Shown: in pieces, positions 5,101 to 22,990 of the stretch
How the letters are laid out: each line of letters opens with the position of its first letter
How positions within the stretch are numbered: position 1 is the stretch's first letter
Assembly (NCBI GenBank): GCA_020697715.1
Contig: JAEHCO010000002.1
Span: 1 to 64,000, forward strand
DNA length: 64,000 nt
Source of the DNA: Methanobacteriota archaeon
GTDB taxonomy: Archaea > Thermoplasmatota > Thermoplasmata > SG8-5 > JAGLSY01
Reading direction: 5' to 3'
Translations under genes and position numbers: made by a program
Notes under the pieces: model-generated
The model's database searches: none
What the model was told of the DNA's origin: nothing
Seen by the model: only the letters and a program-made list of their open reading frames with translations

Positions 5101-7567
5101 GGTTTATCTGGCCAGGCTCATCTTGAAGTGCCACTCTTAAGTTGCCTCCAGTGTATTTTTCCGATATTATATCGCTCAAGGCCCCTGTGCTATTGTACTG
5201 GATAATATGAGGCGAATAGAAATCGATAGGATGTGTTACGGAAGCCGTTCCATCATTGGCCGATATGAAGTATTCGATATTATTGGGGATTGGGTTGGCA
5301 GAGGATATATTTGCGGAATAAGCATGCCCTCCATCATCTGTCATCGCGATGGATGTGAATGCCGTCTGCCCTACTTTTCTATAGGATAATGTGGCCTCGT
5401 TGATCCCCACATTATCAGAAATTATCGCATTTATGGTAAATGACTCGTTTGTGTAAATTAATACTGGCTGATGTGTGATCTTCGGAGTGCCTTGGCCGTA
5501 GACCTCTATCGAATAAGGGGCTGTGGTCGGATTGGTGGCTGGCAATGTCACTACATTACCATTCACATCCTCCACTTTCAAATAATATACGATCTCGCCC
5601 AGTTCTGTCTGAGGCGGGATCTCGGAATAATATGTATTGGTCCCCATTTTCGTTATATGGGTCATGGTGAAAAGGGTGTCACCCACATTTTTGTAATACA
5701 TTTCAGTGGCCAGTAGTTTGAAATCACTTTCAATATTGACCACTATAGGTGTGATATAATTCACACTTGTCATGATCTCTGGAGAATGGGAGATACCTAT
5801 CTGATATGGGCTGTCGACTGTGAAATTCCAGTTCCGGATGCTCATCGTGCCAGCCATATCACTGACAGACACGATCGCATTGTGGACGCCATTGGTCAGC
5901 GGGATATTTGGTTGGTAACGGATAAATCCACTCATATATTTGTCATTGTAAGGGTCTTCATTGAAAATGCTTGTCGCCCAGGCAGTTACATCCACTCCAT
6001 CCACAACTATGCTTGCGGAATATCTGTCCAGCTCGCTATTATTCGTGACAGAGAAGAAGGCGTAGATGTAAGACATTGGATCTTCAATTATCTCATCTTC
6101 CTCTGGCATAATGCTATCAAAATCAGGATATGATCTGTCCAGGATAAGTGACACTGGAACTAAGGCCAGGTCATTCACCGCATCTGTGCCGATATATATT
6201 CCGGCATAGTATTCTCCATCACTGTAGCTCGCAGGTATGTTCCAGGTAAGATCAAATTCTCTTTGGCTGAGAGCTGGTAAAGGACTGTTGTCCACACCTG
6301 TGACATTGAATATCCCTGGCATTTTGGATAACTGATTTAAAAATAAATCAAAATGGCCTGGGTTAGCGTTGACCGTGTACCCCAGGACCTGGATGATGTA
6401 GTCGCCATCCGGTGGTCTGATGAACCTCAGAGCTTCATCCGCATCCATATCCGCACAGTAAGCATAGCTGCCAGATCCATACAAACTGCCGTAGGCATCG
6501 AACTCGATATCATCCTGCGTGATGATCTCCTCCAATTGGGCTATACCATCCTTTGGCTGGCCGTTAAGACCATCCAGGTACACTGCCAGATCAAGATCAG
6601 GGCATGTTGCATCTCCTCGAATGTGGACATCCCAGATCGATGTGTTCTCTAATGTCACGACCTTGGTGTAATTACTAGATGTCAAGAGTGAGAGCCATCC
6701 TTCCATTGTACCATTGTCAATGGATAGGTCGTCCTTGTAAACTTCTTCATCCAGGAACTCTGTGCGATTGGAATTCAGAATAGTGACATTCACATCATCT
6801 AGATCATCATCTGCCCAAAATGATACCTCTCTTGAGCCAGTCAGTGAGTTTGTATGAATATCCATCTCTTCAGGATATGTGGTTATCGTGATAGGAATAA
6901 CAGTCCATGTACAATTCTCCGTAATATTGAACCAGTATCCCTCACCTCTCTTGAGAGTATGATTATCAGGCAAATCATGCGCTACTGGGAAATTCTCAGT
7001 GATATTGGTTATATTTCCCTGGACATTCATTATCTCTGGCATCTGAGCTTTCAAATCTCCTACTGTGAATGTTGAATCATCCAATGTCGGATACCCAACC
7101 ATGTTCCAATTTCCACTCGGAGAATCATCAACCCAAAGATCAATTGCATTTGGGGATGGCAGGGTTCCATTGACCCTCAGGAAACCATCGCTTCCGACAT
7201 CTGTTATATTCACATACAGGCCCATTGTGTTATCAATGGTTGGCAAGTCCCAAAGAGCAGGCGGCATGGCGGAATTATATGTTTTCCAGTGATCTGCTAT
7301 ATCCAGTGGATTATACCATTGAACAATATCTAGAACAGTGTCTCCACCATCATCATCCAGTACTGTTGGTACATCACCAGATACTTCCAATGGTATCGAG
7401 ATAAAGTTCCAGCCAAGTACAACTGGAATGTCAAATGTAGTGTCTCCTGCCATTATCTCGGGCACAGCCAGTTCTTCTCCACTGGCTGTCTCCTCTATTG
7501 AAAAAATTGTGGATATGCCACCTAATGTTAACATCATGCTCAGCATAATTACTATGAATTTCTTCAT
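2159..7567 (-). CDS. ~1800-aa membrane-anchored surface protein with a central family-5 (peptide ABC) solute-binding domain, PPC-like, Ig-like, Fn3 and Ca-binding repeats
   Basis: Signal peptide MKKFIVIML after a GAGGTGG RBS; VYDSLTRID...WHDGSSLTASDVKYTF and FRRAVAHGVNKE SBP5 motifs; FSEEMD/FNMAMD Ig modules; DDNDEDGIPD repeats; C-terminal TM plus acidic tail. Confidence 0.8.
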   Translation of the reverse strand: MKKFIVIMLSMMLTLGGISTIFSIEETASGEELAVPEIMAGDTTFDIPVVLGWNFISIPLEVSGDVPTVLDDDGGDTVLDIVQWYNPLDIADHWKTYNSAMPPALWDLPTIDNTMGLYVNITDVGSDGFLRVNGTLPSPNAIDLWVDDSPSGNWNMVGYPTLDDSTFTVGDLKAQMPEIMNVQGNITNITENFPVAHDLPDNHTLKRGEGYWFNITENCTWTVIPITITTYPEEMDIHTNSLTGSREVSFWADDDLDDVNVTILNSNRTEFLDEEVYKDDLSIDNGTMEGWLSLLTSSNYTKVVTLENTSIWDVHIRGDATCPDLDLAVYLDGLNGQPKDGIAQLEEIITQDDIEFDAYGSLYGSGSYAYCADMDADEALRFIRPPDGDYIIQVLGYTVNANPGHFDLFLNQLSKMPGIFNVTGVDNSPLPALSQREFDLTWNIPASYSDGEYYAGIYIGTDAVNDLALVPVSLILDRSYPDFDSIMPEEDEIIEDPMSYIYAFFSVTNNSELDRYSASIVVDGVDVTAWATSIFNEDPYNDKYMSGFIRYQPNIPLTNGVHNAIVSVSDMAGTMSIRNWNFTVDSPYQIGISHSPEIMTSVNYITPIVVNIESDFKLLATEMYYKNVGDTLFTMTHITKMGTNTYYSEIPPQTELGEIVYYLKVEDVNGNVVTLPATNPTTAPYSIEVYGQGTPKITHQPVLIYTNESFTINAIISDNVGINEATLSYRKVGQTAFTSIAMTDDGGHAYSANISSANPIPNNIEYFISANDGTASVTHPIDFYSPHIIQYNSTGALSDIISEKYTGGNLRVALQDEPGQINPLISADKNTDNVIDLVYDSLTRIDPQTMEIIPWVAESWIIAGNNTMVTVNIRENVTWHDGSSLTASDVKYTFDTYAYSYISSVGVVDDHTVIFILNSPDASLFSEAFQMPLFATGFAKSSGENGCGPFMLGDRVIGDSLELIAYEDYFMGSANVDSITFTYYPDDPVTYESYEDELWGVYRASTDLIEGELDYIGWSLWSNETTEMIEMPADSGNYTNLVQNSEISVKRNVGSGLQYIGFNTQEEPMNNSEFRRAVAHGVNKESLRVFDIGGGLDKADSILNRFDYPYCNKTLEAYRADVAMANNILSNAGFYDRDGDGWRDLPYSPYESFNITLFGPPMMDITMNVMAYVIVGWMQDIGINAVMRSNTSAVNMADVMNDDFDMYFEYIEGSHDPSFLYDLAHSTSAMNYANYNDTYMDTLLEKMEAELDPDMRAQYAQDCEGYLASQVPYIPVLHHRQNNAHRVDGFDGWVNMLDGNDNFWSYLNVYPVSDQIPMDTPLALHAFNTTEGYVDLTWSANDENSVSGYNIYRSNASGGPYTLLDTTDERTAYTDHDAEKAEDSYYVITAINPESSYSKEARCRADDTISPVIWATNPADGNVDIENAALIMITFSEEMDTASVENAFSLTDGIDTWTKDNGTGSWNMIENIFTFDPTDMLAFDTDYIVTINGSIAKDTDGNLLDGNNDTIAGDDHSWSFRTLHDDTPPKIVSVFPDDNSKDVPADTIIIIEFNMAMDATSVEGNITINPSITAIFQWSANDMTLTITPTDDLVPGTLYSISIETDIMNTLQNNLASSYSWSFITWDDNDEDGIPDDLDEDDDNDGFLDEWEEFLDTDPLDPNDQPIDTDNDGIPDGDEDNSEDWMDTDDDDDGVADISDPEPQNPDITGDETNYLWFIIIIIVVIISLILIYILMSRKKTPTHVPGDQSHEEAFAQNGEDIGEGGNMDDVDGVASPPAPDAVPEPDIGPEPHLEPGSIEDK

Positions 7568-7689
7568 CTCTTCCACCTCATTGCTTACTTGTTTATTACA
7601 AACATTATGTCTTAAGTTCATATAAAAGTAGTTTGGTACACTATTTTGTAAACATCATATTTATCTATCTCTAATCAATCCCTCGGCTC

Positions 7690-10256: not shown

Positions 10257-11549
10257 ATGTTCTGTAATCAATGTGAGCAAACAGCCCAGGGGACTGGGTG
10301 TACGGTAAAAGGAGTATGTGGAAAAGATGAGAATATCCAGAGCTTGCAGGAAACCCTCCTGTACGCGCTGAAGGGAATTGCGGCGTATTCATATCATTCC
10401 AGAGTTTATGGAGAACGGGATGAAGATGTGGATGCCTTCATGCATGAGGCTCTTTTCAAGACCCTGACGAATGTGGATTTCGACCTGAATGACCATGTCA
10501 AATTGGCTCTGAAGGCCGGGGAGATGAACTACAAGGCCATGGAACTACTGGACAAGGCAAATACCGGTCATTATGGCAAGCCTGGACCTGTTGAAGTTCC
10601 AACTGGCACGGTCAAAGGGCCTGGCATATTGGTGACAGGCCATGATTTTATGGATCTCGAAGAACTGCTCAAGCAGACCGAAGGAACGGGTATCAATATC
10701 TACACTCATGGTGAGATGTTGCCAGCACATGGATATCCCGAGCTTAAGAAATACAAGCATCTTGTCGGTAATTATGGCGGCGCATGGCAGAAGCAGAAGA
10801 AGGAATTTCCTGCTTTTGGAGGCGCGGTTCTGGCAACCACAAACTGTGTCCAGATACCCACGGATGAATATCGCGATAGACTTTTCACGATAGGCATCAC
10901 TGCGGTCGAAGGTGTGAAGCACATTGAAAGTCGCAAGGACTTTTCCGAGATAATCAACAAGGCGAAAGAGCTTGGAGACCTTCCTGAAGCACCCGGAAAA
11001 CCGCTCACTACCGGTTTTCATCATGATATTGTTCTATCACTGGCTCCCAAGATAATCGAGGCCGTGAAGGCAGGCAAGATAAAGCGCTTCTTCCTGATAG
11101 GAGGTTGTGACGGGGCCAAGGCTGGTCGTAATTATTTCACGGAACTTGCTGAAAAAGTTCCGGATGATTGTGTCATTCTAACACTGGCCTGTGGAAAATA
11201 CCGATTCAACCATATGGATTTTGGAGATATAGATGGAATACCACGATTGATCGATCTGGGACAATGCAACAATGCTTACTCCGCGATACAGATCGCTTCA
11301 GCATTGGCCGAAGCCTTTGAATGTGATGTGAACGATCTTCCACTGTCATTTGCAGTATCCTGGTATGAACAAAAAGCTGTAGCTATTTTGTTGACATTGC
11401 TGAATCTGAACATCAAGAATATCAGAATTGGGCCAACACCACCAGCCTTCATAACGCCTGGTGTCTTCCAGGTGCTTCAGGATAATTTCGACCTGAAGCT
11501 CATCGGCGATGTGGATGAGGACTTGGCTGCAATGATGAAGGGCGAATGA
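10257..11549 (+). CDS. hcp: Hybrid cluster protein (hydroxylamine reductase), short form
   Basis: MFCNQCEQT..GC..GVCGK, GHD, YTHGEMLPAH, TTNC, GGCDG, LACGK, GQCN, SWYEQK. Confidence 0.97.
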   Translation: MFCNQCEQTAQGTGCTVKGVCGKDENIQSLQETLLYALKGIAAYSYHSRVYGERDEDVDAFMHEALFKTLTNVDFDLNDHVKLALKAGEMNYKAMELLDKANTGHYGKPGPVEVPTGTVKGPGILVTGHDFMDLEELLKQTEGTGINIYTHGEMLPAHGYPELKKYKHLVGNYGGAWQKQKKEFPAFGGAVLATTNCVQIPTDEYRDRLFTIGITAVEGVKHIESRKDFSEIINKAKELGDLPEAPGKPLTTGFHHDIVLSLAPKIIEAVKAGKIKRFFLIGGCDGAKAGRNYFTELAEKVPDDCVILTLACGKYRFNHMDFGDIDGIPRLIDLGQCNNAYSAIQIASALAEAFECDVNDLPLSFAVSWYEQKAVAILLTLLNLNIKNIRIGPTPPAFITPGVFQVLQDNFDLKLIGDVDEDLAAMMKGE

Positions 11550-11559
11550 GGTGAGAAAT

Positions 11560-12411
11560 ATGGTGGTTCGTGAGATAATCAAAATAGATGAGGACAGATG
11601 CACAGGCTGTGGCCTGTGCATCCCCAATTGTCCAGAGGGCGCGCTGCAGATAATAGATGAAAAAGCCAGGATGATCAGCGACCTGTTCTGTGATGGTCTG
11701 GGTGCTTGCATCGGACACTGTCCGGAGGGTGCGATCCTTGTGGAGGAAAGAGAGGCTGAGCCTTACAATGAGCGAATAGTTATGGACAATGTGGTCAAGC
11801 AGGGTGCGAATACGATCAAAGCGCATCTGCAACATATGCTGGATCACAAGGAATTCGAATTCCTGGATATCGCGATAGATTATCTCAAGGAGCATGGGTT
11901 AGATGTGCCGGATATCGGATATAACCCGGAGCCACAGGAAAAGGCAGAGGAACAAGCCTCTGCCTGCGCCACCTGCCCCGGCGAAGAACCGCGCACCGTG
12001 AATATCACTGGCATCGCAGCCCCAGAAAAGGAAAGTGGGCGAGCGGAATCCACTCTCACCACCTGGCCAGTCCAGTTAAAATTACTGAACATAAACGCCC
12101 CGTATCTGAAAGATGCCAGTCTGCTCCTGGCCGCAGACTGTGTTGGCTTTGCCTATCCGAACATGCACCAGGACTTTATCAAGGACAAAGTGACGATAAT
12201 CGCCTGCCCCAAGCTCGATGATGCCAGCCAGTATGTGGAAAAACTGGCTGAGATATTCCGTATCAACCCGATAAAGGACATAACCATACTGATGATGGAA
12301 GTGCCCTGCTGCTTCGGGATGGAGAATGTGGTAACACTGGCCATGAAAAAGGCCGGTGTCCAGATACCTGTGGAAAAGCACATTATCAAGATCGACGGCA
12401 GTGTTAAATGA
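11560..12411 (+). CDS. 4Fe-4S ferredoxin-domain protein (hcp-associated)
   Basis: CTGCGLCIPNCPEGA, CDGLGACIGHCP, WPVQL, AADC, ACPKLD, MEVPCC. Confidence 0.9.
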   Translation: MVVREIIKIDEDRCTGCGLCIPNCPEGALQIIDEKARMISDLFCDGLGACIGHCPEGAILVEEREAEPYNERIVMDNVVKQGANTIKAHLQHMLDHKEFEFLDIAIDYLKEHGLDVPDIGYNPEPQEKAEEQASACATCPGEEPRTVNITGIAAPEKESGRAESTLTTWPVQLKLLNINAPYLKDASLLLAADCVGFAYPNMHQDFIKDKVTIIACPKLDDASQYVEKLAEIFRINPIKDITILMMEVPCCFGMENVVTLAMKKAGVQIPVEKHIIKIDGSVK

Positions 12412-12482
12412 TCTGAGTAATAAGAATGTAGAAGGGCTTGGGTCTTTATCTTTCGTCTCATCCCTTCCATCATCTTTATTAT

Positions 12483-13052
12483 TTAGACATATTCCTTTTT
12501 CAGAATCGAATATAGGGTATGATCGACATATTTGCCTTTCAAGAATATCTGCTCTCTCATAGTTCCCTCGAAGGTCATGCCAGCTTTTTTTAATACGGCT
12601 TGAGAACCTATATTCTCAATCCATGTCCTTCCTTCAATTCGGTTCAATTCCATCTTATCGAAGCCGAATTTCATTATCTCTTTCACGGCTTCGGTCATCA
12701 TGCCCTGGCCCCAGTATTCTTTTGACAGAGCGTAGCCAACTTCCGCGCGGAAATTGTCAGGAGACCAGCGAATGAACCCCACTGTTCCGATCAGTTTATT
12801 GTTCTCTTTTAAAACTATCCCCCAGTCAGAAACTTGATTATCCTTATATCGTTCGATCATAAAATTGAGGAAACCCTTTGAATCATCGATCGATCTGTGG
12901 GGTTCCCAGGTGAGGTATCTGGCAACATCTGGCTCACGGGCGTATTCGAATACATCCGTGGCATCTTCCAATGTCAGTTTTCGAAGTATTAGCCTATCGG
13001 TCTCCAAAGAAGGCAGATCACCATATATGTCCTCAATTTTCATCTCCTCCAC
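12483..13052 (-). CDS. RimJ/RimL-type GNAT acetyltransferase
   Basis: LETDRLILR, AEVGYAL..EYWGQG, N.GS..VL.K.GM.FEG. Confidence 0.9.
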   Translation of the reverse strand: MEEMKIEDIYGDLPSLETDRLILRKLTLEDATDVFEYAREPDVARYLTWEPHRSIDDSKGFLNFMIERYKDNQVSDWGIVLKENNKLIGTVGFIRWSPDNFRAEVGYALSKEYWGQGMMTEAVKEIMKFGFDKMELNRIEGRTWIENIGSQAVLKKAGMTFEGTMREQIFLKGKYVDHTLYSILKKEYV

Positions 13053-13117
13053 CTCTACTATGTGAATAGGAAACGTTCCTTAATATCGTTTCCATCATTC
13101 ATAATCATAATGCTATA

Positions 13118-13651
13118 TCATGATTCAATACCAACAGTGAACTCCATTCTTTGAGACGAATACATCACGATATTATCATAATAATCCCTGAGATGGAAAT
13201 CCGCTGACACATAATAGGTTCCATTGTTCATGCCTTCCGTATCCACGGTGCCATTCATGACGAATGTCTTTCCAGGGGGAACGGGAAGTATCGAATGTGG
13301 GTCATCGTAGTAACAATAACCATTATGAGCCACACTTTCGATCTTCTCTCCTGTCGGCTTGTAGATATTTATGTAATAATAGAAAGTGTCGGCATAAGCA
13401 ATAGTATAGCTCTGAGCATTTGTCACATTGATCTGGAATACAGTTCCATTCATGCTCGGGTTCATTATCGATATGCTGACATCATTTTTGGCCAGTGGTT
13501 CTGGAGGAGCGGCACCTTGTTCCTCCCCCGCCTGCATGAAGGCATATAATATTATGATAAAAACAATAAAGGTGATCGATACGATCAAGTAACTGGATGC
13601 CTTCGATCCTGATGCTGACGGATCATTTTTGTTCGAATCTTTCTTTTTCAT
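13118..13651 (-). CDS. Hypothetical single-TM protein with extracellular Ig-like domain
   Basis: Basic N-terminus, one TM segment, beta-rich domain with GTYYV; start uncertain. Confidence 0.6.
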   Translation of the reverse strand: MKKKDSNKNDPSASGSKASSYLIVSITFIVFIIILYAFMQAGEEQGAAPPEPLAKNDVSISIMNPSMNGTVFQINVTNAQSYTIAYADTFYYYINIYKPTGEKIESVAHNGYCYYDDPHSILPVPPGKTFVMNGTVDTEGMNNGTYYVSADFHLRDYYDNIVMYSSQRMEFTVGIES

Positions 13652-13798
13652 GTGAACAGCATCCGAACACGTTTCCATTATTAACAAAATTCGGAACAAT
13701 GTTTAAATCCTGTATCTCTATTTCACTCTTGGGTGAGATAAGATAGGCTGACATTTTGAACAGCTTGTCAACTTTGACTTATACCAGGAGTGAATAAA

Positions 13799-13960
13799 AT
13801 GGACAAATACAGATGTACAGTATGCGGATACATATACGACCCAGAGAACGGAGACGATGACGGCGGAATAGCCGCAGGAACAGCATTCGATGCTCTTCCA
13901 GACGACTGGCTTTGCCCTGTGTGTGGAGCCGGAAAGGACGTCTTCGAGAAAGAAGAGTGA
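13799..13960 (+). CDS. rub: Rubredoxin (53 aa, absent from the ORF track)
   Basis: Manual translation [53 protein letters not shown]; AGGAG RBS. Confidence 0.97.
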
Positions 13961-13972
13961 TGGGGCGTTCGC

Positions 13973-15160
13973 ATGGATAACCTGGAGATCAAACCTGGTG
14001 TGTACTGGGTTGGTGTTATAGATTGGGACATAAGGAATTTTCACGGATACATCACGCAGAGGGGCACGACATACAATGCTTACCTGATAGTTGATGAGAA
14101 GATCACATTGGTAGACACAGTTAAGGCATGCTTATTTGATGAGATGATGGATCGTATCAAGAAGATAATCGACCCATCCAAGATCGATATAATTGTTTCC
14201 AATCATGTGGAGATGGACCACACTGGCTCCATCCCGATGATATTGGAGCACTGTCCAAATGCGGAGATCATCACTTCCACTCAGGGTGAGAAGGGCCTTA
14301 AACGGCACTTCAAAGCCGATTGGAACCTCCGGGTGGTCAAGAGTGGGGAATCGATGTCCATTGGAAAGAAGACATTGACCTTCGTTCATATCCCGATGGT
14401 GCACTGGCCTGACTCCATGGTCACTTACATTGCAGAAGATAAACTGCTCCTATCGAACGACGCTTTCGGTCAGCATATCGCAACTCCTGAAAGGTTCGAT
14501 GATGAACTGGGCTGGGATGTTCTCAAGGAAGAGGCGGCCAAATATTACGCCAATATCGTCATGCCTTATGGCCCGCAGGCCGCGAAGGCCATCGAGGCTT
14601 TGGGTGGCATCGAGATCGACATGATCGCACCATGTCACGGCATCATATGGCGCTCGCTTATTCCAAATATTCTTGCCGAATACAATAAATGGGTCAATTA
14701 TGAGACTGAAAAACGCGCTCTGATAGTTTTCGACACAATGTGGAATTCCACCAAATCAATGGCTTACAAATTGCAGGAGGGTCTGATGGAAGCTGGCTTG
14801 CCAACGACCGTGAAGTTCCTGGGCACGAATCACATTTCCGATATTGTACCGGAAATGATGCATTCGCGACTTATCTTGCTGGGCTCACCGACCTTGAATA
14901 ATGGGATGTTGCCGACCATGGGAGCTTTCCTCACATACATCAAGGGGCTGAGGCCGAAGAAAAGAGTGGGGTTCGCCTTTGGATCCTATGGCTGGGGTGG
15001 CCAGGCTGTCGGCGAGATCAATGAGATAATGGAGAAGCTGAAATGGGACATGCCAGAGGAAAGCATCAATATCAATTATATTCCAGACCCGGAAGAGCTT
15101 GACGAAGTCAAAGCAGTTGGCAAAAAATTGGGAGAATATATATTAGCTCAGGAAGAATAG
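13973..15160 (+). CDS. fprA: Flavodiiron protein (O2/NO reductase, FprA family)
   Basis: GTTYNAYLI, NHVEMDHTG, HWPDSM, NDAFGQH, PCHG, flavodoxin motifs GSPTLN and FGSYGWGG. Confidence 0.95.
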   Translation: MDNLEIKPGVYWVGVIDWDIRNFHGYITQRGTTYNAYLIVDEKITLVDTVKACLFDEMMDRIKKIIDPSKIDIIVSNHVEMDHTGSIPMILEHCPNAEIITSTQGEKGLKRHFKADWNLRVVKSGESMSIGKKTLTFVHIPMVHWPDSMVTYIAEDKLLLSNDAFGQHIATPERFDDELGWDVLKEEAAKYYANIVMPYGPQAAKAIEALGGIEIDMIAPCHGIIWRSLIPNILAEYNKWVNYETEKRALIVFDTMWNSTKSMAYKLQEGLMEAGLPTTVKFLGTNHISDIVPEMMHSRLILLGSPTLNNGMLPTMGAFLTYIKGLRPKKRVGFAFGSYGWGGQAVGEINEIMEKLKWDMPEESININYIPDPEELDEVKAVGKKLGEYILAQEE

Positions 15161-15178
15161 TCTTTCTGAGAGGATAAT

Positions 15179-15418
15179 ATGAGCGAGATAATAGCCGATG
15201 CCGAGATAGACTGCGTGGGACAATATTGCCCCATGCCCATTGCGATGACCAAAGAAGGTATCTTGGGTATCGATATCGGCCAGATTCTGATGGTGGAGGC
15301 TGATGATCCGGCTGCGGAATCCGATATACTGGCCTGGGCGAAGAGAACGGGCCATGAGATAGTTGACTTTCGCAATGATGGAGGCATGCTCACCTTCTAT
15401 ATCAGGAGGATGAAATAA
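15179..15418 (+). CDS. tusA: TusA/SirA-family sulfur carrier
   Basis: IDCVGQYCPMP, ADDPAA..DI.AW. Confidence 0.9.
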   Translation: MSEIIADAEIDCVGQYCPMPIAMTKEGILGIDIGQILMVEADDPAAESDILAWAKRTGHEIVDFRNDGGMLTFYIRRMK

Positions 15419-15780
15419 TGGATGAAGAAAAGTTCCTATTATATGTTCAGACAACGGATGACCCGATGAGGCAATATTCGCCTTTTGTTCTTGCCCAGAC
15501 AGCGAGGATGATGGACATCCCGGCTAAGATATATTATCTTGGCCAGTCACTCAATATACTCAAGGCCGGGGAGGCGGAGAAGATCCAAATGGGTGATTTC
15601 CCCACACTGGCAGAGATGATGGACAAGGCCATCGAGCTGGGAGTGGAGATGCTGGTATGTGACGCATCCCGACAGATGCTACCCGATAAAGACATGGAAT
15701 TGAGACCTGGCTTCAAGATAGTTGGAGCTGGCACATTGAACGATCTGGCATTGGATGCAGGAGCCACAATGTGGTTTTGA
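15418..15780 (+). CDS. DsrE/DsrF-like protein
   Basis: SPF.LA..A, A.ELGV...VC..S, IVGA; overlaps the tusA stop codon (TAATG). Confidence 0.8.
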   Translation: MDEEKFLLYVQTTDDPMRQYSPFVLAQTARMMDIPAKIYYLGQSLNILKAGEAEKIQMGDFPTLAEMMDKAIELGVEMLVCDASRQMLPDKDMELRPGFKIVGAGTLNDLALDAGATMWF

Positions 15781-15791
15781 TCGGTACGGAG

Positions 15792-16997
15792 ATGATGAAA
15801 ATGGATAATAATAAGATTTACATGGATCGCGGATCGGCAACACCCATTGATCCCAGGGTGTTGGAGTTCGCTCATCCATTCCTTAAGACAGCGGGTAATC
15901 CATCCGCACTTCACAGGCAGGGCTTGGAAGCAAGATCAGCTATCGAGGAAGCCAGAGCAAAGGTGGCGGATCTGATAAATGCCGAAAAGCCAGCTTCCAT
16001 AATATTCACCAGTGGGGCTACGGAATCCAATAACATCGCGATTCGTGGGACCGCGATGAGGAATATCGGCCGTGGCAAGCACGTGATGGGCAGTGCGATC
16101 GAGCATATGTCTGTCCTCAACCCTCTGAAAGATCTAACTAAGAGTGGGTTCACGATGGATCTTGTACCAGTGGACAAAGCCGGGATGGTGGACCTGGCCA
16201 AGCTGGAGGAATTGATCTCGCAGGAGACAGTCGTTCTATCCATCATGCACGCGAACAATGAGATCGGCACCATCCAGCCTATTAAGGAAATTAGTAAGAT
16301 AGTACACGAGAAGGGCATGTACCTTCACGTTGATGCCACTGCTTCGGCGGGCAAGGTTCCGATCGATGTCCAGGATATGAACATCGACCTTCTCACGCTC
16401 TCATCCAATGATCTGGGTGGGCCGCAGGGTGCTGGCGCATTATATATCAAGACCGGAACCCGCATACAGACCGTGATGCCAGGTGGAGGTCAGGAAAGAG
16501 GCCTTCGGTCGGGTAGTGAGAACATATTCGCGATAGCTGGAATGGGAGAGGCCGCGAGATTGGCAAAGGAAGAATTGCCAGTCGAGAGCGAGCGGTTGAA
16601 ACGAATAAGGGACGACCTTATTCGTCAGATACTGAAGAATGAGAAGACCTTCCTAACTGGCCATCCAGAAAAGAGACTGCCACATCACGCCAGCTTCAGA
16701 TTCAGTTTCATAGAGGGAGAAAGCATTTTGCTTATGATGGACTTTCAGGGTGTGCAGATATCCACGGGTTCCGCCTGCTCTTCAAAGACATTGGAGGCAT
16801 CTCATGTGCTTTTGGCCACTGGCCTGACACATGAGCAAGCACATGGCTCGATGGTATTGACACTAGGGCATGAGAACAAGCCCGAAGATGTAAAAATAGT
16901 GGCTGAGGCCACCAAGAAAACAATTGATAGGCTGAGAATGCTTTCACCGATCACCCAGGAGGGTGAAGAATACCCAGAGGAGGAACATCATCATTAA
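15792..16997 (+). CDS. iscS: IscS/NifS-like cysteine desulfurase homologue with the PLP lysine replaced by Asp
   Basis: IIFTSGATESNN, IEH, NNEIGTIQP, GGGQERGLRSG, STGSACSS; SSND in place of SxHK. Start could be 15792 or 15801. Confidence 0.9.
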   Translation: MMKMDNNKIYMDRGSATPIDPRVLEFAHPFLKTAGNPSALHRQGLEARSAIEEARAKVADLINAEKPASIIFTSGATESNNIAIRGTAMRNIGRGKHVMGSAIEHMSVLNPLKDLTKSGFTMDLVPVDKAGMVDLAKLEELISQETVVLSIMHANNEIGTIQPIKEISKIVHEKGMYLHVDATASAGKVPIDVQDMNIDLLTLSSNDLGGPQGAGALYIKTGTRIQTVMPGGGQERGLRSGSENIFAIAGMGEAARLAKEELPVESERLKRIRDDLIRQILKNEKTFLTGHPEKRLPHHASFRFSFIEGESILLMMDFQGVQISTGSACSSKTLEASHVLLATGLTHEQAHGSMVLTLGHENKPEDVKIVAEATKKTIDRLRMLSPITQEGEEYPEEEHHH

Positions 16998-17014
16998 GAT
17001 GGAGAGTGGAGAAC

Positions 17015-17467
17015 ATGACTGATATAGGATATACAGAAAAAGTAATGGACCACTTCATGAACCCACGGAATGTGGGCGTGATCGAGGATCCAGATGGCTA
17101 CGGGAAGGTCGGTAACCCGACTTGCGGAGATGTGATGGAGATATTCATCAATATCGCGGACAATAAGATAACCGAGATAAAGTTCAGAACATTTGGCTGC
17201 GGTTCAGCTATTGCCACGAGCAGTATGATCACCGAGATGGCCATTGGAAAGACATTGGAAGAGGCGATGGAGATCACCAGGAACGATGTGGCTGAAAGTC
17301 TGGATGGACTTCCACCCAAGAAGATGCACTGCTCGAACCTGGCCGCGGACGCTCTCCAGGAAGCCGTGAAGGACTACTGGAAGAAGCAGGGCAAGGTAGT
17401 GGAGGATGATGGTGAATCTCCCGAGATGTCCTGTGGTGGTGGCGGGTGCGACAGCTGTGTGAAGTGA
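17015..17467 (+). CDS. iscU: Fe-S scaffold IscU/NifU with Cys-rich tail
   Basis: HFMNPRNVG, GNPTCGD, FRTFGCGSAIA, LPPKKMHCSNLA. Confidence 0.95.
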   Translation: MTDIGYTEKVMDHFMNPRNVGVIEDPDGYGKVGNPTCGDVMEIFINIADNKITEIKFRTFGCGSAIATSSMITEMAIGKTLEEAMEITRNDVAESLDGLPPKKMHCSNLAADALQEAVKDYWKKQGKVVEDDGESPEMSCGGGGCDSCVK

Positions 17468-17530
17468 TAATAATAATTGAAATTCCAAAATAATGATGAA
17501 TAAAATAAGAAATAAGAGGAGGAGAGACTA

Positions 17531-17908
17531 ATGGCAAAATTAATGGAAATATACAAGTGTGAGAAATGCGGGAACATAGTCGAGCTGGTACACGGAGGCC
17601 CAGGGGCGCTCCAGTGTTGTAATACCGATATGATATTGATGGACCCGAAGACAGCGGACTGGACAACGGAAAAGCACGTGCCAGTCATTGAGAAGACTGA
17701 CCACGGTATCAAAGTGACAGTGGGCTCAACCCTTCACCCTATGGCAGACGATCATTATATCGAGTGGATCGAGGTCATTGCAGATGGTAAGATATACCGC
17801 CAGCATCTGAACCCTGGCGATGCACCCGAGGCATTGTTCTGCATAGATGCAGTGACAGTCACAGCCCGTGAATACTGTAACAAACACGGACTTTGGGTCA
17901 CCCAGTAG
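17531..17908 (+). CDS. dfx: Desulfoferrodoxin (2Fe superoxide reductase)
   Basis: [33 protein letters not shown]. Confidence 0.96.
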
Positions 17909-17916
17909 GTGATTGG

Positions 17917-18435
17917 ATGATAAGCGAAAGAATGCAAAATGCCCTGATGGATCAAGTGAATGCGGAAATGTATTCATCCTATCTTTATCTGTCAATGTCA
18001 TCCGACCTGGACAATAAGGGTCTGGGCGGCTTTGCTTTGTGGATGAAGACCCAGGCGCAGGAAGAACTCTATCATGGCATGAAATTATATGACTTTGTTA
18101 TCGAGCGTGGTGGCAGAGCGATCCTGAAGCAGATCGAAGGACCGCAGACCGAATGGGCATCACCACTGGCTATCTTCGAGGCAGCGTATGCTCATGAGCA
18201 AAAAGTAACAGGCCTAATAAACAACCTGATGAACATGGCCATCGAGGAAAAGGATCACGCGACATCCCAGTTCCTTCAGTGGTTCATAAAGGAGCAGGTG
18301 GAAGAGGAAGCATCGGCTGATGAGATAGTTCAGAAATTGAAATTGATCGGCGATGGAGGCAATGGCCTCTTCATGCTGGACAAGGAAATGGGAGCCAGGC
18401 CTCCATTATTCGCTTTCCCAGTATCGAGTGGTTGA
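17917..18435 (+). CDS. ftn: Ferritin
   Basis: QVNAEMYSSYLY, QAQEE..H, HEQKVT, QWFIKEQVEEE; GGTGA RBS. Confidence 0.96.
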   Translation: MISERMQNALMDQVNAEMYSSYLYLSMSSDLDNKGLGGFALWMKTQAQEELYHGMKLYDFVIERGGRAILKQIEGPQTEWASPLAIFEAAYAHEQKVTGLINNLMNMAIEEKDHATSQFLQWFIKEQVEEEASADEIVQKLKLIGDGGNGLFMLDKEMGARPPLFAFPVSSG

Positions 18436-18446
18436 GGTGATTAAAA

Positions 18447-18941
18447 ATGGATCTAAGTAAATTCACACTGGAAGACGTAATACTTTCAGCGATTCGAAGT
18501 GAGATGAACAGCGGAGCCCAGTACAAGGACATCGCCAGCAAGGTGGAAAATGCTTTTCTGATAGAGAAATTGAACTTCCTGGCTGACGAGGAAGCCAAAC
18601 ATCAGAACTTCTTAGAAGGTCTATATGCGAAGTCATTCGCCGGCAAGGAATTGATCGTGCCAGAGGAAACACCAGTTCCCTTACCCGAGATGAAAGTCTA
18701 TGGCGAGGGAGTCAAACTGAGTGAAGTTCTAGAGAGCGCGATGGAAGCCGAGCGAGCTGCGAAGGACTTCTACAATGAGCTATCCAGACAATTCGAAAAA
18801 GAACCAGATATAAAGAAAAACCTGGAATATCTGGCCTCGATGGAATGGGGACATTATAAGCTCCTGGAGATCGAGAGAGATAATTCTCTGAACTTCGAAT
18901 CGTATGACGAATACTGGCCGATGATGCACGTCGGCGGTTGA
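18447..18941 (+). CDS. Rubrerythrin-like ferritin-family protein
   Basis: AIRSE, EEAKH, AMEAE, MEWGH diiron motifs; ends WPMMHVGG. Confidence 0.9.
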   Translation: MDLSKFTLEDVILSAIRSEMNSGAQYKDIASKVENAFLIEKLNFLADEEAKHQNFLEGLYAKSFAGKELIVPEETPVPLPEMKVYGEGVKLSEVLESAMEAERAAKDFYNELSRQFEKEPDIKKNLEYLASMEWGHYKLLEIERDNSLNFESYDEYWPMMHVGG

Positions 18942-19040
18942 AGTATTCTATAATGATTCATTGACAGAATCGAAAACTTTATCAAATTCACCTCATGCAT
19001 AGATTAAGGATGAGTCAGGCGATTTTGATAATTAAATAAT

Positions 19041-19080
19041 ACAGCACGAGCTAAATACCCGTGCTGTCATTTTCATTTTT
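19041..19080. terminator. Hairpin terminator between convergent genes
   Basis: ACAGCACG ... CGTGCTGT followed by a T-rich tract. Confidence 0.6.
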
Positions 19081-19101
19081 CAAGCAATTTTTAGTATATA
19101 T

Positions 19102-19638
19102 TTATCCAAACACTCTGAAGCCATAGTCTTTCATGTGAGGCATATCGGACACCTGTTCTCTTATCTTCTCTGGCTCTTCCATCATCGCGTCTTCCAGATG
19201 TTCTTTCTCTCTTTTCAGAATGTCATAGTGGCTGTGCTCGTTATTCGATATATAGGTGAACAATTTCTTCTGATCCTTGTGTACCTTGGCCAGATATTTG
19301 TACACCTTGTAACCCTTGTATTCATTCTGCATCGCGTCTCCAAGGGCGTGGATCATATTATCGATGGTCTTGATCTCCACCTCTGTCTCAAAAGGCTTTA
19401 ATCCAGTCCCCTCTGGAAATTCCCATTCTTCATTTTCAAATATATCCAGATACAGATCCTGCAACACCCGCATGTGCATGTCTTCATCCTTTGCGATACT
19501 CTCGAACTTGTGAGCTACAAGGCTGTCCTTGTCTAGGCCCTTAACTAGGTTCCTGTATAATTTCGCGGCTTCCTTCTCCGAAAATATCGCATATCCTAAC
19601 AATTGCTTTAGACTTAAACTCTTTAACTCCCCATGCAT
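19102..19638 (-). CDS. Rubrerythrin-like ferritin-family protein (paralog 1)
   Basis: AIFSE, DEDMH, AMQNE, NEHSH. Confidence 0.85.
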   Translation of the reverse strand: MHGELKSLSLKQLLGYAIFSEKEAAKLYRNLVKGLDKDSLVAHKFESIAKDEDMHMRVLQDLYLDIFENEEWEFPEGTGLKPFETEVEIKTIDNMIHALGDAMQNEYKGYKVYKYLAKVHKDQKKLFTYISNNEHSHYDILKREKEHLEDAMMEEPEKIREQVSDMPHMKDYGFRVFG

Positions 19639-19662
19639 AGCATTTGCTATTCCAAGTGGTGA

Positions 19663-19678
19663 TATTTAAATCTATTTC
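19663..19678 (-). promoter_or_regulatory. BRE/TATA promoter, probably leaderless transcript
   Basis: Minus strand GAAATAGATTTAAATA, 25 nt before the ATG; identical 16-mer at 20315-20330. Confidence 0.7.
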
Positions 19679-19705
19679 GCATGGATATGAAATTGTTTGT
19701 TCGAC

Positions 19706-19749
19706 CAGATTAAACATGACCAAATTTCAGGTCATGTTCACTTAATCTG
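19706..19749. terminator. Bulged hairpin between the tandem paralogs
   Basis: CAGATTAA-ACATGACC ... GGTCATGT-tcac-TTAATCTG. Confidence 0.55.
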
Positions 19750-19761
19750 CCGACTATTCCT

Positions 19762-20292
19762 TTACTCAAACACTCTGAATCCGAAGTCTTTGTGATGTGT
19801 CATCTCGACAAGAGGTTCATGTCTCTTCTTTGGCTCGTCCATCATCATGTCTTCCATGTGATCCTTTTCCCTCTTCAGAACATCATAATGGCCGTGCTCG
19901 AAATGCGACAGATATTTGAACAATTTCCTGTGTTCCTTGTGTGTCTTGGCCATGTATTTGTAGACCTTGAAAGCATTGTACTCGTTCTCCATAGCGGCTT
20001 CCAGTGCGCGGATAAGATTATCGATGGATTCCACCTTGACAATGGATTCGAAAGGAGGCAGTCCCTCTGGGTATGACCAGTTCTCGTCCCCGAATGTCTC
20101 TCTGTATAGGTCCTGCAACACCCATTTGTGCATATCCTCGTCCTTGGCAATGGATTCGAACTTGTGCCTGACAAGACTGTCTTCATCCATATCACTGACC
20201 AGACCCCTATAGAATTTGGCAGCTTCCTGCTCTGAGAAAATAGAATATCCAATTAGTTCTTTCAATTCAAGATCTTTTAGTTCTTCATACAT
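19762..20292 (-). CDS. Rubrerythrin-like ferritin-family protein (paralog 2)
   Basis: SIFSE, DEDMH, AMENE, FEHGH; clearly homologous to 19102-19638. Confidence 0.85.
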   Translation of the reverse strand: MYEELKDLELKELIGYSIFSEQEAAKFYRGLVSDMDEDSLVRHKFESIAKDEDMHKWVLQDLYRETFGDENWSYPEGLPPFESIVKVESIDNLIRALEAAMENEYNAFKVYKYMAKTHKEHRKLFKYLSHFEHGHYDVLKREKDHMEDMMMDEPKKRHEPLVEMTHHKDFGFRVFE

Positions 20293-20314
20293 GAACCCGA
20301 GTATTAAATGAGAT

Positions 20315-20330
20315 TATTTAAATCTATTTC
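20315..20330 (-). promoter_or_regulatory. BRE/TATA promoter, probably leaderless transcript
   Basis: Same GAAATAGATTTAAATA, 23 nt before the ATG. Confidence 0.7.
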
Positions 20331-20510
20331 CTTATTGATCGTCATTTGATCTATATATAATTCGATATCTCATTTAAAATATATTAAATATATAATTATT
20401 TATATTATTATTGTAAAATTTATAATGGGATTAATCTGACATATTATTCTAACATATTAGTGAATCACTATAAGTAAAATGCAGTGTTTCGTCTACATGA
20501 GGTTATGAAT

Positions 20511-20972
20511 ATGAAGATACCACCTATCGGAGAAAAGATCGATGATTTCGTGCTTGGTGATCAGAATGGAAAAGAGGTCAAGCTCTCGGATCATAGAGGG
20601 AAGAAAGTGCTATTGTCCTTTCATCCACTTGCATGGACTGGCGTATGTGCGAAACAGATGAAGTCTCTTGAAGATAATTTTGACAAGTTCGAGGAATACG
20701 ACACGGTCGCATTCGGGGTAAGTGTGGATTCAGCCCCATCCAAAAAAGCATGGGCTGATGAACTAGGAATTACCAAGACCAGCTTATTAGCGGACTTCTG
20801 GCCCCATGGTGGCCTGGCTGAAAAACTGGGTATTTTCATCGATGAAAAAGGAATTTCTGGCAGGGTGAACATCATAATTGACGAAGAAGGCATACTCAAA
20901 TTCGTCAAGGTCTATGATATTCCTGAACTTCCAGATATCAATGAGATACTCGAAATACTAAAGCCGGTGTGA
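20511..20972 (+). CDS. Peroxiredoxin (AhpC/TSA, AhpE-like)
   Basis: FHPLAWTGVC, SVDS, LLADFWPHG. Confidence 0.9.
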   Translation: MKIPPIGEKIDDFVLGDQNGKEVKLSDHRGKKVLLSFHPLAWTGVCAKQMKSLEDNFDKFEEYDTVAFGVSVDSAPSKKAWADELGITKTSLLADFWPHGGLAEKLGIFIDEKGISGRVNIIIDEEGILKFVKVYDIPELPDINEILEILKPV

Positions 20973-21448
20973 GTGATATCATGCTCTCTATTGGGGAAAA
21001 AGCAATTGACTTCTGCCTTCCTAACCAGTCTGAAGAAGATGTCTGTCTTGAAGATATGAAAGGTAAATGGATAGTTCTATATTTCTATCCTAAGGACAAT
21101 ACGCCCGGCTGCACGCTGGAGGCCATTAATTTTTCAAAGGACCTGGAGGATCTCACAAAGGCCAATACACTGATATATGGCATAAGCGCGGACTCATGCC
21201 AGAGCCATGTGAAGTTCCGAAATAAACATGATATCGCGATCGAGTTATTGAGCGATGCGGATCACGCAGTAATGGAGAAGTACGGTGTGTGGGGGGAGAA
21301 GAAGATGTATGGCAAGACCTTCTTAGGGATCAGCAGGACCACCTTCCTGATAGACCCGGAAGGTGTTGTGAAGCATGTCTGGAAGAAAGTGAGGGTCAAA
21401 GGGCATAGTGAGTCCGTCAAGGAAAAGCTGGCCGAGCTTCAGTCCTGA
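20969..21448 (+). CDS. bcp: Thioredoxin-dependent peroxiredoxin BCP
   Basis: LYFYPKDNTPGCTLEA, LLSD, YGVW.EK.MYGK, RTTFLID. Start may be the ATG at 20981. Confidence 0.93.
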   Translation: MSDIMLSIGEKAIDFCLPNQSEEDVCLEDMKGKWIVLYFYPKDNTPGCTLEAINFSKDLEDLTKANTLIYGISADSCQSHVKFRNKHDIAIELLSDADHAVMEKYGVWGEKKMYGKTFLGISRTTFLIDPEGVVKHVWKKVRVKGHSESVKEKLAELQS

Positions 21449-22368
21449 TCTTTATCCTTGTACACATCCAGCTCGATGTAGATCATCTTGGCTATGGGGA
21501 CTTTCTCCCTTATTTTATTCTCAAGATCATTTATGGCCTCGGCAGCCGCATCCGTTGTCATATGGCTGTCCATTTCCACCTTGGCCGCTACAAGTAATTC
21601 CTCAGGCCCGATATGCTGTGTCCGCATGTGTATGAGGTGATTGACCTGCGGATGTGCTTCTATTGTTTTGCATAGCTTATTCACAGTTTCCTCGGAGGCG
21701 CATTCTCCAAGGAGAAGCGACCGTGTCTCGATAGCAAGTACTATGGCTATCACACCAAGCAATATGCCGATTGCCAAGCTTCCCATCGCATCGTATCTGG
21801 CATCCCCGGTGATCATTGCCAGGCCTATTCCTATCAGAGCGATTATCAGTCCCACAAGTGCTCCAATGTCTTCCAGAAGGACCACTGGTAGCTCCGGTAC
21901 CTTGCTCTTCTTTATGAATTCCCACCATGTTCTTTTTCCTTTCAAAGGGCGGGATTCGATTATCGCGGTTCTGAGGGAGAATGCCTCCAGGACGATCGCC
22001 ACTACCAGAATTAGGATCGCCCATTCTGGTGATTCGAGACCATGATCGCTGGTATGGGAAAGTTTCTCCCAACCTTCATAGATGGCGAACAATGATCCAA
22101 GGGTGAAGATTATCATGGCCACGATGAAGGACCAGAAATATCTCTCTCTGCCAAAACCAAAGGGATGTTCCGATGTCGCTTTCTTCTTTGCCAGCTTCCC
22201 CCCCATAAGCAAAAGACCTTGATTGGAGGTATCTGCTAGGGAATGAACAGCTTCGGCCAGCATTGACGCCGCTCCTGTAAAAACAAATCCAATTATCTTC
22301 GCTATCATTATCCCGAGATTGGCAAAGAAAGCTGCGATTATGGCCTTTCGACCTCCATGCGCTGACAT
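21439..22368 (-). CDS. Cation diffusion facilitator (CDF) transporter
   Basis: AEAVHSLAD, HPFGFGRERY, LLED; start moved to MSAHGG. Confidence 0.92.
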   Translation of the reverse strand: MSAHGGRKAIIAAFFANLGIMIAKIIGFVFTGAASMLAEAVHSLADTSNQGLLLMGGKLAKKKATSEHPFGFGRERYFWSFIVAMIIFTLGSLFAIYEGWEKLSHTSDHGLESPEWAILILVVAIVLEAFSLRTAIIESRPLKGKRTWWEFIKKSKVPELPVVLLEDIGALVGLIIALIGIGLAMITGDARYDAMGSLAIGILLGVIAIVLAIETRSLLLGECASEETVNKLCKTIEAHPQVNHLIHMRTQHIGPEELLVAAKVEMDSHMTTDAAAEAINDLENKIREKVPIAKMIYIELDVYKDKDQD

Positions 22369-22441
22369 CGTCGGTTCATTGATGTATAGGATATATTTTT
22401 TTGCAGTGTTTGCTTTACCTATCTCATATCGAGGTCGAAAT

Positions 22442-22990
22442 ATGATAACATTTGACAAACCCGGGAAAAATAATTCAGAGGAATGTGTAAGACTGGCTGC
22501 CGAAAGAGCAAAAGAGTTGGGATTGAAGGAAGTGGTGGTCGCTACCAATGTCGGCGATACTGCATTTTTGGCCTTGAAATATTTTGAAGGCTTCAAGATA
22601 ATAGCTGTCACTCATCACGCTGGCTTTAAGAAACCCTTTCAATGCGAGATGCATGAGGAGGAAAGAGCCAAGCTGGAGTCAAAAGGCGTGACTGTTCTGA
22701 CCACCAGTCACGCGCTAAGCGGCGCGGAAAGATCCATAAGGAAAAAGTATCAGGGCATCTACCCGCTGGAAATAATCGCTGACACTCTTCGATTATTCGG
22801 CCAGGGAACAAAGGTATGTGTCGAGATAGCCATCATGGCGGCTGATGCAGGATTGCTAAGCGGCAAGGAGATAATGACCCTTGGCGGAACTGGAAAGGGA
22901 GCGGATACCGCAATCGTACTTAGTCCAGTAAATCAAAGGGATCTCTTGGACTTAAAGATACATGAGATAGTATGCAAACCCCGATTATGA
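22442..22990 (+). CDS. Pyruvate kinase C-terminal-like (MTH1675-type) protein
   Basis: F.KPG..N, VTHHAGF, HALSGAERS, FGQGTKVCVEI, ADAG, GGTGKGADTA. Confidence 0.85.
   Translation: MITFDKPGKNNSEECVRLAAERAKELGLKEVVVATNVGDTAFLALKYFEGFKIIAVTHHAGFKKPFQCEMHEEERAKLESKGVTVLTTSHALSGAERSIRKKYQGIYPLEIIADTLRLFGQGTKVCVEIAIMAADAGLLSGKEIMTLGGTGKGADTAIVLSPVNQRDLLDLKIHEIVCKPRL

Follow-up and report, generated by a model that had tools for sequence, protein, structure and literature searches.

The 64,000-nucleotide stretch analysed here, hereafter the window, comprises positions 1 to 64,000 of contig JAEHCO010000002.1 of a Methanobacteriota archaeon (assembly GCA_020697715.1; Thermoplasmatota, SG8-5). It carries four closely packed genes on the forward strand, tusA, a dsrE-like gene, iscS and iscU, and the IscS lacks the catalytic lysine of cysteine desulfurases. 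The first gene (tusA, 15179-15418) encodes a TusA-family sulfur carrier of 79 amino acids with the motif D11-C12-x-G14-x-x-C17-P18-x-P20, and the second (15418-15780) encodes a DsrE-fold protein of 120 amino acids with a single cysteine, Cys81, in the motif LVCDAS. The longest open reading frame (ORF) of the lysine-less IscS, or MisS, starts at a GTG and extends from 15771 to 16997 (408 amino acids). The likely start is the ATG at 15801, which is preceded by GGAG and gives a product of 398 amino acids, matching the length of the closest homologue (P0001). The last gene (iscU or misU, 17006-17467) encodes a scaffold protein of 153 amino acids that ends in a Cys-rich tail and has C40, D42, C65 and C109 as ligand residues. 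The tusA and dsrE-like genes overlap by 1 nucleotide, and the remaining gaps within the cassette do not exceed 20 nucleotides. All four genes are confirmed by Pfam: TusA (3.5e-20), DsrE (1.2e-9) and DrsE_2 (2.8e-10), Aminotran_5 (5.3e-73) and NifU_N (8.5e-49). A first-pass annotation, made from the letters of the sequence, had placed tusA and dsrE directly upstream of iscS, tightly coupled and with iscU next, and both the coordinates and Pfam agree with that arrangement.

The same annotation had drawn attention to the residues SSND (codons TCA TCC AAT GAT, 16401-16412) in place of the Schiff-base motif SxHK, which holds the pyridoxal phosphate (PLP) cofactor. Read in the frame of the ORF 15771-16997, these codons encode S211-S212-N213-D214 in the 408-amino-acid numbering. 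They fall on S203-G204-H205-K206 of Escherichia coli IscS, and an identical SSND is present in Archaeoglobus fulgidus IscS2 (PDB 4EB5), where D214 corresponds to D199. The further motifs it had named were also located, namely YMDRGSATP, HVDATAS and the mobile loop STGSACSS (16761-16784), whose cysteine (C336 in the same numbering, codon 16776-16778) is equivalent to Cys328 of E. coli. 4EB5 is the best solved relative of the window protein (E 6.8e-130, residues 17-395); with the same Lys-to-Asp change and a place in the same clade, the protein is of the A. fulgidus IscS2 type. It belongs to the class-V aminotransferases (PF00266, 5.3e-73) and scores below the NCBIfam equivalog cut-offs for both IscS (374 versus 643.2) and NifS (436.2 versus 530.75). 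The PLP residues of a canonical desulfurase (EC 2.8.1.7), Lys206, His205 and Gln183 in E. coli numbering, are replaced in it by Asp, Asn and Ala.

These replacements are a property of the family. In an alignment of 89 lysine-less and 85 Lys-type sequences, in E. coli IscS numbering, the lysine-less group has K206 changed to D (0.90), H205 to N (0.99) and Q183 to A (0.90), and the Lys-type sequences keep Lys, His and Gln at frequencies of 1.00, 1.00 and 0.99. The lysine-less group is further changed from D79 to N and from H235 to Q; H104 is retained in 89/89 and D180 in 79/89 of its members. The mobile-loop cysteine is present in every sequence of both groups (89/89 and 85/85). Among the 120 best database homologues of the window protein, 119 have Asp at the Lys position, one has Thr and none has Lys, so the lysine-less IscS belongs to a sizeable conserved family and the Asp is no error. 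Regarding activity, the annotation had given as established that A. fulgidus IscS lacks desulfurase activity and donates a cysteine ligand to the cluster of IscU, and the available text of two papers, where the cluster is [2Fe-2S], agrees (PMC7585200, PMC8918507); both properties are known for the A. fulgidus protein only. According to the same text, A. fulgidus IscS binds pyridoxamine phosphate, as does its D199K variant, of which PDB 4R5F is the structure.

The neighbourhoods of iscS genes were compared in four samples: 80 loci with 5 kb flanks, one genome per species; the 29 best loci from 401 Thermoplasmatota genomes; 50 Halobacteriota loci from 401 genomes (the 30 best and 20 of the remaining 25 matches); and 20 additional IscS genes from Thermoplasmatota genomes in which a lysine-less copy is also present. 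Neighbouring genes were identified using phmmer and hidden Markov models built from the cassette TusA and DsrE. The residue at the Lys position was the only basis for assigning a locus to a class; L081 (SNQ) was counted as lysine-less, and five other variant loci were kept separate. Among the 89 lysine-less loci, 82 have at least 800 nucleotides of upstream sequence, and 80 of these 82 carry tusA and/or a dsrE-like gene directly upstream (both in 66, tusA only in 11, dsrE only in 3), leaving two with neither (L081 and L139). iscU lies downstream of 84 of the 89 genes. Upstream carriers were found at none of the 82 Lys-type loci with at least 800 nucleotides upstream, including the 20 same-genome paralogues, and neither tusA nor dsrE was found within 2 kb on either side at any of the 85 Lys-type loci. 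Enrichment of tusA-dsrE with Asp-type IscS had been set beforehand by the first-pass annotation as a test of its reading, and the outcome, 80/82 against 0/82, is as it predicted.

The paired paralogues give the same picture: all 20 have the lysine and none has a carrier neighbour, and Pfam found no TusA or DsrE among 45 of the 91 ORFs flanking them (12 of the 20 loci and single ORFs from two more). The association was also followed in the reverse direction. A profile of the cassette DsrE gave 47 strong matches in the 401 Thermoplasmatota genomes, of which 41 lie in cassettes (39 adjoin a listed IscS and two adjoin an IscS cut by a contig end) and six lie elsewhere. Six of the 39 adjoining IscS proteins share only 49-54% identity with the window protein, and all six are without the lysine (SSND in five, SSNA in one) and have tusA upstream and iscU downstream. 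This conserved arrangement suggests where inactive IscS look-alikes may obtain their sulfur.

Both carriers keep the residues expected of sulfur-transfer proteins. The window TusA is a clear member of its family (PF01206, 72.1 bits against a cut-off of 28.6), and its best solved relative is E. coli TusA (1DCJ/3LVJ, about 3e-8), with C17 of C17-P18-M19-P20 aligned to Cys19. It scores below the equivalog for the E. coli tRNA-thiolation TusA, NF001423 (43.8 bits against 78). In 80 cassette TusA proteins C17 is kept in 100% and an additional cysteine, C12 (window codon 15212-15214), in 95%; the latter lies five residues before the CPxP cysteine and is missing from E. coli TusA. The Cys12/Cys17 pair may help to release sulfide from a persulfide. 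The DsrE-like protein is a member of the DsrE/DsrF family (PF02635, 38.8 bits against 22.7, 1.2e-9; PF13686, 2.8e-10), and its AlphaFold2 model (mean predicted local distance difference test 92.3) has the DsrE fold, with Cys81 at the end of a strand and the start of a helix. A Foldseek search with this model gave 3MC3 first (TM-score 0.81, 26% identity), followed by DsrEFH (2HY5) and TusBCD (2D1P). 3MC3 is also the closest solved relative by sequence (E 6.8e-9), with Cys81 aligned to its cysteine. Of 76 cassette DsrE proteins, 99% retain Cys81 and 100% retain Ser84, and the window protein lies far below the DsrE2 equivalog NF047629 (19.6 bits against 210). A second TusA (74 amino acids) is encoded elsewhere in the window genome (L202, G000:C11:558344-561541), together with four small DsrE/F/H-like genes and next to a regulator; this group appears to be an independent sulfur relay with no relation to the cassette.

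The scaffold is an IscU by its equivalog (TIGR03419, 209 against a cut-off of 187.9) and by NifU_N (8.5e-49), and its ligands C40, D42, C65 and C109 align with C37, D39, C63 and C106 of E. coli. The end of the gene (17429-17464) encodes the Cys-rich tail SCGGGGCDSCVK. Such a tail was considered as a marker of the cassette and rejected, since similar tails were seen in seven of the 82 IscUs from cassettes and in no partner of a Lys-type IscS (n=47). TusA, the DsrE-like protein, IscS (in its loop) and IscU each keep their active-site cysteines, which in part supports the reading of the first-pass annotation. A hint on docking comes from IscS itself. Mutants W45R, E49A and D52 of E. coli IscS lose TusA binding (PMC2854127). 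In the W45 column, 79 of the 89 lysine-less sequences have a hydrophobic residue (Leu 67, Phe 9, Val 3; L52 in the window protein), and 77 of the 85 Lys-type sequences have Arg (56) or Gln (21). This fits a putative TusA docking site that was retained or gained in the lysine-less clade.

The evolution of the family was analysed with a FastTree phylogeny of 176 sequences with SH-like support. The lysine-less clade comprises 88 loci and the window (support 0.988), and includes the A. fulgidus-type loci L177 and L162. It covers Thermoplasmatota, Halobacteriota and bacterial metagenome-assembled genomes (MAGs) labelled Ignavibacteria and Desulfobacterales, and identity to the window IscS falls to about 50% across it. 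The sister of the clade is L027, from a MAG labelled Hydrothermarchaeota. It is of the Lys type and has the order iscS-iscU-iscU-nadA-tetR-dsrE-tusA, with dsrE-tusA 2.4 kb downstream in the same orientation; L027 is possibly an evolutionary intermediate, as a single case. L081 and the five variant loci are placed outside the clade, in two other bacterial groups of lysine-less proteins (L054/L068/L076 and L069/L081/L084), whose motifs are AQS, SHT, GIPL, SNQ (L081) and GHQ. Two of these six loci have tusA nearby, upstream in L076 and after iscU in L084, both with an Rrf2 regulator. A convergent gain of tusA in these groups is not claimed here, two of six loci being too few.

Taken together, we regard it as fairly probable, from gene order and conserved residues, that the four genes form one functional cassette in which a catalytically dead IscS serves as an adaptor and is fed sulfur by the TusA and DsrE-like carriers. 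The IscS homologue would be unable to form a persulfide from cysteine, because the Schiff-base lysine and two further PLP contacts are lost. It would instead act as a non-catalytic adaptor that docks IscU, its loop cysteine being a cluster ligand or the point of sulfur hand-over, as in the A. fulgidus IscS2-IscU crystal. TusA (Cys17, CPxP) and the DsrE-like protein (Cys81) would carry sulfane sulfur as cysteine persulfides and so supply the missing mobilising step. The carriers would then hand the sulfur to the IscS loop cysteine or to IscU, the site of [2Fe-2S] assembly.

As the origin of this sulfur the first-pass annotation had named sulfide, polysulfide or thiosulfate, with a direction of transfer towards the IscS/IscU pair, as its own inference only. 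The window genome also encodes a canonical Lys-type IscS on contig C11 (L001; LSLSGHKIYAPKG), with no IscU beside it; this gene adjoins an ORF of 242 amino acids. A second IscS match is present in 30 of 33 cassette-bearing Thermoplasmatota genomes (cassette IscS of at least 60% identity), and all 20 that were fetched have the lysine. Cysteine-derived sulfur could therefore be supplied in trans. The same relay may accordingly draw its sulfur from cysteine, with the Lys-type IscS loading TusA, and TusA and DsrE passing the sulfur on to the lysine-less IscS-IscU pair. In the window genome such loading of TusA is a live alternative; overall we consider it rather unlikely. It gains from the established transfer from IscS to TusA in E. 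coli (PMC2854127) and from an ANME-1-labelled locus (L073), where a high-scoring Aminotran_5 gene lies divergently beside the cassette. Against it, three Halobacteriota genomes (G577, G452 and G470) showed only lysine-less PF00266 genes at E <= 1e-30, and so the cassette family cannot depend on a Lys-type partner. The Lys-type paralogues of the relatives are moreover mostly found in nadA-iscS-(iscU)-queD-queC clusters, with nadA upstream and, in most of those scanned, QueC downstream, joined by IscU or QueD in several (L180-L199). Such clusters suggest a dedicated role and resemble what would be expected of a desulfurase that serves quinolinate synthase. In most Lys-type proteins the residue matching W45, whose change to Arg abolishes TusA binding in E. 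coli, is Arg or Gln. This alternative is nested in the cassette reading and rivals only a desulfurase-independent source.

The "cysteine-independent" part of the earlier claim is favoured by the three Halobacteriota genomes, at that threshold, and is not supported for the window organism, whose genome has a Lys-type IscS. On balance we lean, at moderate odds, towards a pool that would need no cysteine desulfurase (polysulfide, persulfide or a thiosulfate-type compound), since no Lys-type enzyme was seen in some cassette genomes and the Lys-type genes of the relatives lie in nadA/queuosine clusters. G577 encodes a protein identical to the 4EB5 chain at 381 of 382 positions and has two cassettes. 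One of them (L162) has an intact tusA-dsrE-iscS-iscU. The other (L177), which is the IscS2 locus, has no tusA and a dsrE truncated at its 5' end: this copy (1635-1988) lacks the start codon and about 8 codons at its beginning. The IscU of L177 is identical to that of L162, and the pair looks like a segmental duplication.

The cassette of the window lies within a 12-kb run of oxygen- and nitrosative-stress genes (10257-22611), as identified by Pfam. Upstream are a hybrid-cluster protein (10257-11546), a 4Fe-4S protein (11551-12411), a rubredoxin (13790-13960, forward strand) and the flavodiiron protein FprA (13973-15160, forward strand), whose stop lies 18 nucleotides before the start of tusA. 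Downstream are desulfoferrodoxin, ferritin, three rubrerythrin-like genes and two peroxiredoxins (17531-21448), followed by a cation-efflux protein on the minus strand (21442-22611). This oxidative-stress island was missed by the first-pass annotation and is a new observation. Stress genes lie within 2 kb of 28 of the 29 lysine-less loci in Thermoplasmatota, five of ten in the species-wide sample, eight of 50 in Halobacteriota, and two of 85 Lys-type loci, with Pfam applied to example loci. The linkage is therefore strong in the Thermoplasmatota lineage and not universal. Outside the island, the window contains two very large probable surface proteins on the minus strand, one of 1820 amino acids with SBP_bac_5 and Big_5 domains (2162-7621) and one of 1160 amino acids with PKD, CARDB and carboxypeptidase-regulatory domains (25433-28912).

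Regarding other scaffolds, SufB/D (PF01458) was not found in the window genome, which is 93.8% complete; a control profile was found in 14 of 14 reference genomes. Apart from the cassette IscU, the one scaffold seen is a NifU_N gene that stands alone (C30:72521-72877). The cassette may be the main Fe-S scaffold system in this organism, because no SufB/D was found. A Fur/PerR regulator (PF01475), present at L009 and L013, was not found in the window genome. In the Thermoplasmatota lineage the cassette is probably co-expressed with the surrounding oxygen-defence genes. A fuller proposal we put forward tentatively, as possible and well short of probable: tusA-dsrE-iscS(Asp)-iscU would be a self-contained, desulfurase-free Fe-S route that takes sulfane sulfur through TusA and DsrE onto the dead IscS and IscU and that, in anaerobes like this archaeon, is induced with oxygen-defence genes, rebuilding clusters while free sulfide is oxidised.

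The same island would also suit a flow in reverse or to another end, in which sulfane sulfur from oxygen-damaged clusters is salvaged or detoxified, or passed to thiolation pathways. A role in the detoxification of reactive sulfur species has been put forward for members of the DsrE4 group, in the available portion of PMC11094781, and the cassette lies within oxygen-defence genes both here and at 28 of the 29 Thermoplasmatota loci. We consider this reading unlikely, as a lysine-less IscS would be unable to generate sulfur for export, the cluster ligands of IscU are all kept, the stress context is not general (the eight of 50 in Halobacteriota), and the separate TusA in the DsrEFH-like cluster of the window genome could serve thiolation.

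Less likely still, and in our view improbable, is that the genes are neighbours through shared inheritance or co-regulation only, with the carriers acting elsewhere and IscS-IscU using free sulfide directly. Direct use of sulfide is the hypothesis published for A. fulgidus (in the text available from PMC8918507). The clade has a single origin, two of the 82 loci are without both carriers, and the crystallised IscS2 has a truncated dsrE at its locus. These points are met by the persistence of the overlapping or near-abutting order tusA-dsrE-iscS-iscU at about 50% identity in two archaeal phyla and in bacteria, by the presence of 41 of the 47 DsrE subfamily genes in cassettes, and by the same-genome Lys-type paralogues (n=20), which are never beside carriers. 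A sequencing or assembly error, or a decaying pseudogene, can be rejected as practically excluded: the Asp is clade-wide and none of the 120 best homologues carries Lys, the ORF is intact, three PLP-contact positions have changed jointly across the clade, and the A. fulgidus orthologue has been crystallised.

The adaptor reading itself has several observations to contend with. The case for it is built on synteny and conserved residues. Because the lysine-less clade has a single origin, the count of 80 in 82 reflects long retention of one invention and not repeated independent gains. Neither carrier is indispensable, with 11 loci lacking dsrE, three lacking tusA and two lacking both, and the very A. 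fulgidus locus whose IscS2 was crystallised has a truncated dsrE and no tusA. A Lys-type IscS is present here and in 30 of 33 relatives, so a desulfurase-free source is not required, and the stress context is weak in Halobacteriota. Most of the carrier counts come from TusA and DsrE profiles made from cassette members, which could miss divergent relatives beside Lys-type genes, and the Pfam check covered 45 of the 91 ORFs flanking the paired loci. Finally, the W45 argument is one column of one alignment.

The lysine-less IscS was already known, and what we did not find described in full-text literature searches is its link to TusA and DsrE; the remark of the first-pass annotation that the four-gene route is not known to be described is consistent with these searches. 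The finding matters because structural work on Fe-S assembly has the A. fulgidus IscS-IscU pair as a reference. How this pair builds clusters without desulfurase activity was called an open question in a 2022 review, with sulfide as the hypothesised source (PMC8918507, in the text available). A near-universal, clade-specific link to carriers contrasts with a 2026 review, the available part of which describes the MIS system as having no additional components (PMC13066941). If the proposal is true, sulfur would enter Fe-S assembly through a protein relay that bypasses PLP chemistry in many anaerobic archaea and some bacteria. In the window genome the cassette appears tied to oxygen defence.

Comparison with known systems places the cassette near several of them. 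The fused rhodanese-TusA-DsrE reductase of Pelobacter was considered and found not relevant. The SUF system resembles the cassette in that a small carrier of cysteine persulfide (SufE or SufU, with SufS) stands between source and scaffold and in its link to stress (PMC13066941, in the available text, and general knowledge); the carrier families are unrelated, however, and SUF keeps an active desulfurase. The closest solved relative of the cassette DsrE belongs to the Sulfolobales DsrE3A-TusA system: 3MC3 is SSO1125, a trimeric DsrE3A, and the DsrE3A of Metallosphaera cuprina passes bound thiosulfate to TusA (PMC11094781, in the portion available). The cysteines are aligned, and the identity of 26% refers to this single structure. 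DsrE3A serves dissimilatory sulfur oxidation beside sHdr, whereas the cassette protein belongs to a distinct, shorter subfamily tied to IscS-IscU. The E. coli IscS-TusA complex (3LVJ) has, like the window, a TusA-family protein with a CPxP cysteine and a partner of the IscS fold, and the lysine-less clade is hydrophobic at the E. coli W45 hot spot. In E. coli a catalytic IscS delivers sulfur to TusA for tRNA thiolation, whereas the window IscS is predicted to produce none, so that any flow would have to run towards it.

Archaeal pairs have also been described. The isc1 system of Methanosarcina acetivorans (IscS1 MA0808 and IscU1 MA0807; Deere et al. 2020, PMC7585200, in the text available) has a larger IscU1 of 24.2 kDa. 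MIS (MisS/MisU), in the available part of PMC13066941, is an archaeal pair of IscS-like and IscU-like proteins without chaperones or carriers. HscA/B, IscA and Fdx genes were not found by Pfam in the cassette neighbourhood, in agreement with the absence of chaperones and of an A-type carrier from MIS. MisS is, however, called a cysteine desulfurase working with no additional components, whereas the MisS-like protein of the window is without the catalytic lysine and has tusA and dsrE as two fixed neighbours. A. fulgidus IscS2-IscU (4EB5, 4EB7 and 4HVK; D199K, 4R5F) has, like the window, SSND, a conserved loop cysteine and an adjacent IscU. In the text available from PMC7585200, PMC8918507 and PMC13066941, IscS-IscU is treated as a two-protein system, with no mention of TusA or DsrE. 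The other lysine-less locus of that genome, L162, has the intact tusA-dsrE-iscS-iscU seen in the window. Unlike the IscS2 locus, with its 5'-truncated dsrE and no tusA, the window cassette is complete and stands within a stress island.

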